Assembly (NCBI GenBank): GCA_016180955.1
Contig: JACPAD010000004.1
Location: forward strand, 1 to 52,562
DNA: 52,562 nt
Direction of reading: 5' to 3'
Origin: Candidatus Zambryskiibacteriota bacterium
Lineage (GTDB): Bacteria > Patescibacteriota > Minisyncoccia > Phycocordibacterales > Zambryskibacteraceae
Shown here: positions 17,015-19,101 of the stretch, in pieces
Numbering within the stretch: the first letter of the stretch is position 1
Layout of the letters: each line of letters opens with the position of its first letter
Notes under the pieces: generated by a model
What the model saw: only the letters and a program-made list of their open reading frames with translations
What the model was told of the DNA's origin: nothing
The model's database searches: none
Made by a program: the position numbers and the translations under genes

Positions 17015-17195
17015 ACAAAAAGTCCACGCACAATCGGCGTGGACGAGAACGATGGGAGTGGAGGGCATCAAGCGCCTGCGGCCTCTTCAGATTAGCGAAC
17101 CTTATCTGGCTCAGCTAAATCTGCGGGCCGCAACCCAGGAGGAACCCTCCACTCCCCCAGAAGGCCTCCTCCTGGGTCCGCCTCTCTGGTCTCTA
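17015..17195 (-). ncRNA. Candidate structured non-coding RNA with long-range pseudoknot
   Basis: Promoter TTGCTA-17-TATCTT with extended TG (17230-17202). Four complementary segment pairs. Terminator GTCCACGC/GCGTGGAC plus T-run (17022-17044). No credible ORF. Confidence 0.6.
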
Positions 17196-17304
17196 ATTAA
17201 TAAGATAGCACTCCTCTAATAAAATAGCAAGCGCTTTATTTTGCTTCACTTTTGGGCTAGAATCAAACATCTTGCCTCGCCCTACGTAGCTCGGGCGTTG
17301 CACG

Positions 17305-17377
17305 GGGCCCTTAGCTTAGTTGGTAGAGCGCCTCATTTGCAATGAGGAGGTCATCGGTTCGAATCCGATAGGGTCCA
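17305..17377 (+). tRNA. tRNA-Ala (TGC), CCA not encoded
   Basis: GGGCCCT/AGGGTCC acceptor stem with G3:U70, CCTCA-TTTGCAA-TGAGG anticodon arm, TTCGAAT T-loop. Confidence 0.97.
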
Positions 17378-17454
17378 CAATTCCGAATTTGAAGAAAGGT
17401 TGACCTCGCCCGCGCCCTCGCTGGGAAGGAAAATTTTGAAGACGGGTTTCTGGT

Positions 17455-19101
17455 TTATACACTACATCCGGCGCCATCTTTTTGTTGCGGGGTAAGACCC
17501 AGCTTTTTAATTTCTGCGTCAATATTGGCGTACCAGCCGCCAGCACTCGAATAATCCTTGCCCATCACTAACTTGGGATCGACTTTGTCCCAGTCAGTAT
17601 TTTTTGCCGCCTTGAAGTAAAGGGCGGTTTGGATGTAGTTATGCGGAAACCAGAATGAGTTGAAGACTACTGCCTCTCGGTAAAGGTCATCTTCGGTAAG
17701 TCCTTGCGCCGCGCCAAGCTGAAGAAGTCCCAGCAACGCCGAGCCGTGATTGCAATCCTGATAAAAGGTTGAGTTGTTGCAACATGGCCTGTAAGCATTT
17801 TGAGCAATTTTCGTGACTAACGCCTCTTGTTCCGGCGTAAGTTCAACTATTTTGAATTTATTGAAGTACGCGCCGCCATTTTCTTCCTTGCCTAAGTTCC
17901 AGCCGCCAGTGGATGCAAAATTAAAGAGCGATTTGCCAAGAATGGGACTTTGCTTATTGGATGACATATAGTTAGCAAGTCCAAGCGGCCACAAGAGATT
18001 CACATAGTAGTTTGCATTTTCTCGCGTAAGAAGAATCGGTCTTGGGGATGGCTCATCAAGCACATCCTTTAATTCAGTGGGGAAACCGCCGCGATCTTGA
18101 TAGATCGCCAATAATTTATTGCGCTCAATCACGCCGTTCCGAACTAATTTCACTACGCTGCTTCCCAAAACGATCTTGCTTTGAAATCCTTGCTCCGGCA
18201 GAACCCTTGCGGTTACCTCGTCAATAAGCGTATTTCCAGTTTGTGAGACATTTGCGTTGTTGAGCGTATTGTCATTGGGATTAACAATGCCGTTTTGGCT
18301 CAACACTTTGGCGATTACCGGCTCGGTTTTGAGCATATTCCAACTGACCAGAGTTAAGGCAATTACAGCCGCAACCAATCCCAAAAGCCAGAGCCTGTCG
18401 GCTTCTTTGAAAGAGTGGTCTTTTGGCAAAGGACATACACCGCTCAAGCAATCAACTTCAAGTTTTTTTAAATCTCTTCTCGTAAGCCATATCGGCAATA
18501 CGAGCAACCCAAAAGACAGCGCTTTAAGCTCAAGCCCTTGAAGCGGAAAGGCCGCAAGTCCTCCGGCAATGCCAATCGTAGAAAGAAGCGTTGAGCCGCA
18601 AACAGGACAGGCAGAGGCGGCAATGCTGACAACCGTTCCGGCTCCGCTGCCCGTTTCTGTTTTTAATTTCGGGGGGCCAAACTTCCTCCAGCGATAGACA
18701 AGGAGTGATATATTCACGCCAAAGAGAACAATCGCCCCAAGCGTCAGAATCACATACGGCCAGAAATAAAGAGGTGTGCTGTAGGTATTGGTGATGACAT
18801 TGGTAATTGCCGAATCAAGACGAAGTACCCAGTATAGGACCAGGAAGAAAGCAAGCGATGAGGCAATGCCGATAAGCCCGAAGAAAAGTTTTGTGAGAAA
18901 CTTGATGTCTTCTGACTTGAGCGTGTCTTTTTTGGACTCGTCTTCTTGTTGGATTGCGTGCGCAGTTATTTCGATATTGCAACTCTGATGTTCTTTGCAC
19001 CACGCTTCGCACTTCTCGGCCCACTCTTTATCTTCGTATTGGAAGCCGCACTCTTCGCATTGACGCAACTCTTTATCATTTTGTTGAGTTGTTTTGGTCA
19101 T
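17455..19101 (-). CDS. Cys-rich multi-domain membrane protein (possible metal binding)
   Basis: N-terminal CEECG..CEAWC..C, transmembrane region with ACPVCG, C-terminal PCCNNSTFYQDCNHG, ends GCSV. Confidence 0.7.
   Translation of the reverse strand: MTKTTQQNDKELRQCEECGFQYEDKEWAEKCEAWCKEHQSCNIEITAHAIQQEDESKKDTLKSEDIKFLTKLFFGLIGIASSLAFFLVLYWVLRLDSAITNVITNTYSTPLYFWPYVILTLGAIVLFGVNISLLVYRWRKFGPPKLKTETGSGAGTVVSIAASACPVCGSTLLSTIGIAGGLAAFPLQGLELKALSFGLLVLPIWLTRRDLKKLEVDCLSGVCPLPKDHSFKEADRLWLLGLVAAVIALTLVSWNMLKTEPVIAKVLSQNGIVNPNDNTLNNANVSQTGNTLIDEVTARVLPEQGFQSKIVLGSSVVKLVRNGVIERNKLLAIYQDRGGFPTELKDVLDEPSPRPILLTRENANYYVNLLWPLGLANYMSSNKQSPILGKSLFNFASTGGWNLGKEENGGAYFNKFKIVELTPEQEALVTKIAQNAYRPCCNNSTFYQDCNHGSALLGLLQLGAAQGLTEDDLYREAVVFNSFWFPHNYIQTALYFKAAKNTDWDKVDPKLVMGKDYSSAGGWYANIDAEIKKLGLTPQQKDGAGCSV

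Follow-up and report, generated by a model that had tools for sequence, protein, structure and literature searches.

Analysis of the minus strand of the contig JACPAD010000004.1 from a Candidatus Zambryskiibacteriota bacterium (52,562 nt; this whole stretch of DNA is called the window below) revealed a candidate gene for a structured RNA at positions 17015-17230, between the 3' end of the cell-wall gene ddl and a tRNA-Ala(UGC) gene. Read in the direction of the RNA, the element starts with a promoter-like hexamer pair, continues with eight complementary segments arranged as A-B-A'-C-B'-D-D'-C', and closes with an intrinsic terminator (Table 1). A preliminary description, made from the sequence alone, had proposed a stand-alone pseudoknotted non-coding RNA at this place, and the overall proposal holds: the element has its own promoter-like site and terminator and contains no conserved open reading frame (ORF). 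All four complementary pairs that had been drawn for segments A to D were confirmed where they had been placed. The proposed terminator was also found by a terminator scan, as a hairpin of 8 pairs (6 of them G-C) with a 7-nt loop and a following T-run; the region holds two terminator-like sites, with 1.5 expected by chance, and the hairpin has no U-tract when read on the ddl strand. The core has a GC content of 62%, compared to 46% for the genome, in agreement with its earlier designation as a GC-rich island. This island is not free of ORFs as had been stated, since a 55-aa frame (17052-17219, plus strand) and a 36-aa frame (17193-17303, minus strand) overlap the region, though neither of them is conserved. 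Window DNA is present in groundwater metagenome runs, and DNA contigs from three such runs of one study span the RNA with zero differences, showing that the assembly is sound here.

Table 1. Features of the RNA locus in the window, and the range of each RNA element among the six copies described in the text. SD, Shine-Dalgarno.
Feature	Position	Strand	In the window	Among the six copies
uvrC and ddl	ddl end 17005	+	flank of the RNA	
U-tract	17021-17015	-	follows the terminator stem-loop	
Terminator stem-loop	17044-17022	-		strong terminator in 6/6
Tail after C'	17053-17045	-	9 nt	7-9 nt
Helix C, 3' strand (C')	17054-17065	-		
Linker from D to C'	17066-17077	-		10-15 nt, sequence not conserved
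Hairpin D	17078-17131	-	long interrupted stem-loop (17077-17132 in the preliminary description)	29-65 nt, beginning 0-2 nt after B', sequence variable
Helix B, 3' strand (B')	17132-17144	-	pyrimidine-rich, anti-SD-like; abuts the C 5' strand with zero gap	gap to the C 5' strand 0-2 nt, and 5 nt in G022 if no bulged C is permitted
Helix C, 5' strand	17145-17156	-	purine-rich, internal GUG; pairs with 17054-17065, 12 bp	9-12 bp, purine-rich 5' strand
Loop 1	17157-17165	-	9 nt; doubles as helix A 3' strand in this genome only	4-10 nt
Helix B, 5' strand	17166-17178	-	purine-rich, SD-like; core of 11 bp (17167-17177 / 17133-17143), extending to 13 bp (17166-17178 / 17132-17144)	11-13 bp, purine-rich 5' strand
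5' leader	17179-17196	-	18 nt, contains a UAG(AG) motif	
Helix A	17180-17189 / 17157-17165	-	9 bp, one bulge	
Promoter-like site	17202-17230	-	-35 hexamer TTGCTA (17230-17225), 17-nt spacer, TG (17210-17209), -10 hexamer TATCTT (17207-17202)	
tRNA-Ala(UGC)	17305-17378	+	ARAGORN, Rfam	
548-aa predicted membrane protein	17455-19101	-	Cys-rich N-terminus, no Pfam family	

In the genome that carries the window (G000; 488 kb, 85% complete), the element is single-copy by BLAST. The fold of a 186-nt stretch has an energy of -95.7 kcal/mol, compared to -67.8 +/- 4.6 kcal/mol for shuffled sequences (z = -6.1), none of the 200 shuffles being as stable. Likewise, the score of the B+C pseudoknot is reached by none of 300 mononucleotide shuffles. 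When the whole genome, with its 317 terminator-like sites, was scanned for a pseudoknot followed by a terminator, a score of 23 was obtained at this site only; the two other hits are AT-rich and score 16-18.

Relatives of the RNA were sought by sequence, synteny and structure. The genus comprises 37 genomes of 0.4-0.6 Mb, with one listed at 1.1 Mb. BLAST of a 231-nt region against 60 relatives gave only matches of 14-31 nt and no relatives, and a pile-up of these matches at query positions 157-199 is located in coding sequence. A single-sequence covariance model of C and D (R1) misaligned the G006 copy and was unusable. Using a model of the 5' domain from G000 and G006 (R2), a genome-wide search recovered G000, G006 and G032, and a three-sequence model (R3) added G022 (24.1 bits, E = 0.011). 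The R3 scores of the G022, G029 and G034 copies are only 24, 18 and 13 bits, which indicates that model searches miss real members. Across 109 loci, a strict structural scan, which demanded 8 bp or more in helix B, 7 bp or more in helix C, no more than 3 nt separating the two and a terminator no further than 25 nt away, returned true copies only and uncovered G029. Finally, reading of the ddl flanks in 35 genomes of the genus, the other two having no ddl match, recovered G022 again and added G034. Relaxed versions of the scan were flooded by chance matches and only strict versions were used, the last of which recovers 5/6 known copies. The RNA is thus present beside ddl in 6/35 flanks, in G000, G006, G022, G029, G032 and G034. 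Four of these copies were found independently of the locus; the scan of ddl/tRNA-Ala loci was the only route to G029 and G034, and the synteny count is partly biased because these two were searched for there. Among 80 metagenome ddl loci there is one carrier only, L109, which is identical to G032.

Several weaker candidates were rejected. These include weak model hits in G003, G004 and G013, the hits in G071 and G082, which correspond to a plain terminator and a coding ribosome-binding site (RBS), and 23 more model hits within the genus with scores of at most 17.7 bits. A terminator in G025 (L182, G025:C65) resembles the C/B' junction and has no C' partner nearby, and was classed as a look-alike or relic and not as a member. 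On the ddl strand, this hairpin pair, located ~420-480 nt past the ddl stop, terminates a small Cys-rich ORF; its other strand matches the C/B' junction at 17/24 nt and may be a relic of the RNA. Separately, a G+C-rich stretch with nested hairpins and a weak model hit was seen at L214 (G012:C59, ~290-470), with no Rfam match at E <= 0.01.

The six sequences are barely alignable by sequence, and all of them share the same layout: B, loop 1, C, B', D, linker, C', tail and terminator. In each copy, a UAG(AG) motif lies 0-12 nt 5' of helix B. MAFFT did not bring the copies into structural register and an alignment built from the R3 hits mixed both strands, so covariation was counted with our own script. 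In the structure-fitted alignment, 69/72 cells of helix B are canonical, with 8/12 pairs changed on both sides and 4 invariant pairs, and 49/50 cells of helix C are canonical, with 6/9 pairs changed on both sides and 3 invariant pairs. None of 2000 column shuffles reaches the observed count for B, nor does any of 2000 for C, and sliding the partners by 1-3 columns lowers the canonical cells to 32-41/72 for B and 20-27/50 for C. At the level of single sequences, the score is reached by 0/300 shuffles for G006 and G029, as for G000. Outside the helices, loop 1, the linker, the tail and the loop of D have no sequence in common among the copies, and no conserved reading frame was found among the six on either strand.

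The strand assignment is supported by the U-tract, which is on the minus (RNA) strand in 6/6 copies, and modestly by the G-U pairs: 8 G-U cells on the RNA strand would be A-C on the other strand, compared to 3 in the reverse sense. Taken singly, helix B contributes between -17 and -24 kcal/mol and helix C between -8 and -24 kcal/mol, and their joint formation should be favourable. Nested folds forced to contain either B or C differ by 0-3 kcal/mol in 4/6 copies, so close that a pseudoknot-free program cannot choose between the two helices. Helices B, C and D recur in the five other genomes with compensatory changes; helix A is confined to G000, and neither it nor the local hairpin of the minimum-energy fold has a counterpart in the other five copies. 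The conserved core is predicted to be a single H-type pseudoknot, in which B crosses C and hairpin D occupies the third loop.

Comparison with known RNA families gave no assignment. At Rfam gathering thresholds, only tRNA-Ala(UGC) is detected in the window. In a permissive Rfam search of the region, the best match is the ylbH leader (22 bits against a cut-off of 50), a sub-threshold match seen in G000 and in none of the other five copies, and the rest is eukaryotic miRNA and lncRNA noise. At E <= 1 on the six loci, no family matches the copies, the remaining rows being tRNAs or chance matches outside the RNAs. The RNA matches no known Rfam family and probably represents a previously undescribed one; as already proposed, it is none of 6S, the RNA of the signal recognition particle (SRP), RNase P RNA, tmRNA or a known riboswitch at threshold. 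For 6S (RF00013), there is no match at E <= 10 in the region or the whole genome and none at E <= 1 in the six loci; genus-wide, 0/37 genomes are over the cut-off, with one weak 22.6-bit hit in G024. RNase P RNA (RF00010) does not match the region and was not found elsewhere in the 85%-complete G000; it is detected in 29/37 genomes of the genus, including a separate locus in 5/5 other carriers. The tmRNA of G000 is on another contig (103.8 bits) and ARAGORN finds none in the window. Where detected, the housekeeping roles of RNase P and tmRNA type are filled by separate genes. None of the six copies is called as a cloverleaf by ARAGORN or Rfam, no match to Intron_gpI was found for the RNA, which is free-standing between genes, and CsrA is over the cut-off in 0/5 genomes. 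A literature search on structured or noncoding RNAs and pseudoknots in Patescibacteria and the candidate phyla radiation, at the level of titles, returned nothing relevant.

Some known RNAs are nevertheless similar in topology. The preQ1-II riboswitch (RF01054) is an H-type pseudoknot whose loop 3 carries a hairpin. All six copies have its strand order (B, C, B', D, C'), and an SD-type sequence is buried in the knot of both RNAs. However, the helices of the present RNA are 9-13 bp long compared to a few pairs in preQ1-II, its SD-like run is in the 5' strand of B and not in the 3' strand, and it ends in a terminator facing the convergent ddl in 6/6 copies, whereas preQ1-II precedes a gene. It has no conserved junction nucleotides and no Rfam match, and neither the pocket nucleotides nor the 5'-UTR position of the riboswitch were found. 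In the rpsO/S15 and alpha operon/S4 operators, a pseudoknot encloses the SD and start codon before a conserved gene, whose product it binds. The knot described here would also enclose an SD-like run and a start codon, but without a conserved ORF or downstream gene. The group I intron core, with the order P3, P7, P3', P8 hairpin and P7', also has the same strand order; in place of its P4-P6 domain, the RNA has 4-10 nt between B and C, and it lacks the conserved bulge, the J8/7 sequence, a host gene and splice sites.

Taken together, these results on balance favor a real, functional and stand-alone structured RNA of the B/C-pseudoknot architecture, forming a genus-restricted family. Two long interleaved helices kept through a near-complete turnover of sequence are the signature of function by shape. 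We infer that the gene is transcribed and the pseudoknot formed: an RNA of ~150-190 nt would start at its own promoter and stop at an intrinsic terminator of its own, and helices B and C would stack into one rod of ~21-25 bp with hairpin D projecting from it. Since only the helices and a few base pairs within them are conserved, the loops and junctions being free to vary, this fold may act as a particle recognized by shape, such as an RNA that binds a protein or serves as a decoy, a proposal that we consider possible but tentative. Junction nucleotides are not kept, which argues against a ligand sensor or a ribozyme, and no single-stranded seed is kept, which argues against a seed-pairing small RNA. 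The promoter-like site appears to be backed by the conservation of its extended -10 block, which is also found upstream of the G022 copy and of the tRNA-Ala(GGC) gene in G024, and transcription would start near 17193-17196.

Several observations weigh against this reading. The hexamers of the sigma70 promoter proposed in the preliminary description are present, but they score 8/12, below the 9/12 rule of the promoter scan, and the site is hence unlisted. The covariation counts come from a manual, structure-guided alignment of only six kin sequences of one genus, so that the paired counts are inflated. Per-sequence shuffles are weak for two copies (6/300 for G022 and 14/300 for G032 reach the score), helix C of G034 contains an A-C mismatch, and joint formation of B and C is beyond what programs limited to nested folds can confirm. 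The distribution is narrow: the RNA is missing from 29/35 ddl flanks and is therefore dispensable, no true match was found in 150 other genomes of the order (151 with G000), and a scan able to recover 5/6 known copies found it at 0/20 ddl loci of the sister genus (0/19 without the unpublished genome G195). Lastly, no partner protein or target is indicated by the analysis, and the mode of action is a guess.

The 5' half of the knot resembles an RBS. The 5' strand of B contains an SD-like purine run in 6/6 copies, followed at or inside the 5' strand of C by a start codon, AUG in 4 copies and GUG in 2; this strand opens with AUG in 4/6 copies. The codon is located 4-10 nt past the SD-like run, with the GUG of G029 at 5 nt; in G000, a GUG lies ~12-15 nt past the run and a CUG at 7 nt. 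At codon positions 2 and 3, all six copies have the same pairs, U-A and G-C. By complementarity, the B' and C' strands can sequester the SD-like run and the start codon in the six copies, and the pseudoknot would thus close an RBS look-alike. The frames behind these codons have 13, 14, 15, 17, 47 and 88 codons, share neither sequence nor register, and look random, so that a peptide is probably not the point.

This arrangement would suit a tiny mRNA with a locked RBS, either type-I-toxin-like or carrying a regulatory micro-ORF, in which B' hides the SD, C' hides the start codon and translation follows processing or unfolding. The recurrence of an SD-like run and a start codon in all copies and the invariant codon pairs are consistent with it, as is their sequestration, which is a feature of type I toxins. 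However, the conserved short hydrophobic ORF of such toxins is missing: the frames are unrelated, two of the six run through the terminator, none is hydrophobic, and by our estimate their lengths are about those expected in random sequence of 60% GC. We regard this explanation as unlikely. The same features could also be read as a mimic of a translation-initiation site that docks on 30S subunits or initiation factors, acting as a ribosome decoy or regulator in bacteria lacking SRP and a detectable 6S RNA. Helix B would then copy an extended SD:anti-SD duplex and the outer end of helix C the pairing of the start codon with the CAU anticodon, with RBS spacing and end-to-end stacking; this remains speculative, and we give it very little credence. 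A third possibility, quite improbable in our view, is a sensor coupled to the terminator, where the pseudoknot decides between a stop and antisense read-through into the convergent ddl-uvrC operon. All copies are convergent with the ddl 3' end while the other flank varies, and the terminator, devoid of a U-tract on the ddl strand, follows C' by 7-9 nt in each of them. On the other hand, no junction or loop nucleotide is conserved, unlike in ligand-binding RNAs, on inspection no alternative pairing of C' with the terminator recurs consistently, G000 alone having one, of 5 bp, and the synteny may reflect descent, two copies having been found only via the ddl/tRNA loci.

The RNA also shares with 6S its size of ~180 nt, a stand-alone gene with its own promoter and terminator, and the retention of structure over sequence. 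Its nested fold is likewise made of a stem, an internal loop of ~12/12 nt and a stem-loop, so that C could be the closing stem of an RNA polymerase binder, B' and the linker a bubble that is symmetric in 6/6 copies, D the terminal stem, and the 5' strand of B a mimic of the product RNA. That canonical 6S is over the cut-off in none of the genus genomes would fit this reading. However, the 5' side of this bubble is perfectly paired with helix B over 11-13 bp in every copy, and no mimic of an open promoter is expected from it; the closing stem has only 9-12 bp, RF00013 matches no copy and the RNA occurs in only 6/37 genomes, which makes a 6S-like role highly unlikely. Equally improbable is the double pseudoknot or conformational switch put forward in the preliminary description, with B competing with helix A or with the local minimum-energy hairpin. 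In G000, loop 1 can indeed form either the 9 bp of helix A with the leader or a 9-bp hairpin with the 5' strand of B, and B can also pair with B'. In the other five copies, loop 1 is unrelated in sequence, 4-10 nt long, and without complementarity to the leader or to B, and by this comparison the switch is contradicted as a family trait. Lastly, the element could be a functionless relic or passenger, either what remains of a mobile element in the rearrangement-prone tRNA-Ala/ddl region or a structure retained only as a transcription stop. Its patchy presence in 6/35 ddl flanks, the extra tRNA-Ala fragments and inserted ORF nearby in relatives, and the G025 terminator with its 17/24-nt look-alike of the C/B' junction speak for this view. 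Nevertheless, two long helices have been retained despite many double changes, over a divergence that leaves Ddl at 57-64% identity, a mere terminator needs no pseudoknot upstream, and there are no repeats, second copy or adjoining mobile gene; we consider a relic very unlikely.

In each of the six genomes, the RNA occurs once and in convergent orientation to the 3' end of ddl. Its earlier description as divergent from tRNA-Ala is accurate for G000 and G006 and does not extend to the family, whose constant neighbor is ddl. In G029, tRNA-Ala(UGC) is on the same strand ~60 nt upstream of the RNA; the same is probable for G034, whose contig starts with a tRNA-like 3' end. In G032, this tRNA gene is on the same strand 1.3 kb upstream, and no tRNA gene was found at the G022 locus. 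In most relatives read, the slot divergent from tRNA-Ala(UGC) is filled by tRNA-Ala(GGC), and in G006 it carries a 150-nt stretch with the identical strand order and different letters. Compared with its G000 counterpart, Ddl is 57-64% identical in carriers and up to 66% identical in non-carriers. The simplest history is that of an ancestral gene with many losses, the fold being retained where the gene survived. The 548-aa membrane protein encoded beyond the tRNA in the window is not beside the RNA in G006 or G032; its best Atlas cluster score is 0.83, a lead only. Between the RNA and ddl of G032 lies a small gene with the orientation of ddl, by eye that of a PLDc_N-like membrane protein.

Structured RNAs with solid comparative support but no family are few, and bacteria with ultra-small genomes, in which each gene that is kept carries information, are almost unexplored in this respect. 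If confirmed, the RNA would provide structural biology with a new fold, in which a pseudoknot with long stems carries an inserted hairpin, as well as a handle on RNA-based regulation in organisms not yet grown alone. It would also be a test case for families missed by sequence and model searches, given that BLAST found no relative and the best model reached 13-24 bits on three of them. For now, the impact is limited by the narrow range of six genomes in one genus.

The searches for known RNAs led to an observation on protein targeting that is possibly more surprising than the RNA itself. The SRP54-type GTPase domain, which covers Ffh and FtsY, is over the cut-off in 0/37 genomes of the genus. 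The Ffh M domain was found in 0/5 genomes, and SRP RNA in 0/37 (RF00169) and 0/5 (RF01854), with SecY present in 5/5; the same searches are positive in 12-14 of the 14 control genomes. The SRP pathway appears to be missing from the genus as a whole. A literature search on SRP loss in the genus found nothing at the level of titles.

The surroundings of the tRNA-Ala genes show further peculiarities. A block of ~40 nt between the RNA promoter and tRNA-Ala(UGC) (window 17224-17277) is near-identical in many relatives (L045, L049, L050, L054, L059, L061 and others), and the depth of the groundwater runs rises there from ~10 to 400-1060, owing to contigs of other organisms. This block looks like a shared divergent promoter region of tRNA-Ala genes. 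The tRNA-Ala genes themselves are a hot spot in the genus, as seen at L058 (G018:C102), L056, L046, L065/L105 and L124, and there are extra partial copies. Rfam calls intact tRNAs only at these loci, with no intron family. An ORF that is GIY-YIG-like by eye is flanked by a broken tRNA-Ala(GGC) on one side and an intact one on the other, and an insertion of ~85 nt is present in the D-loop region of a tRNA-Ala.

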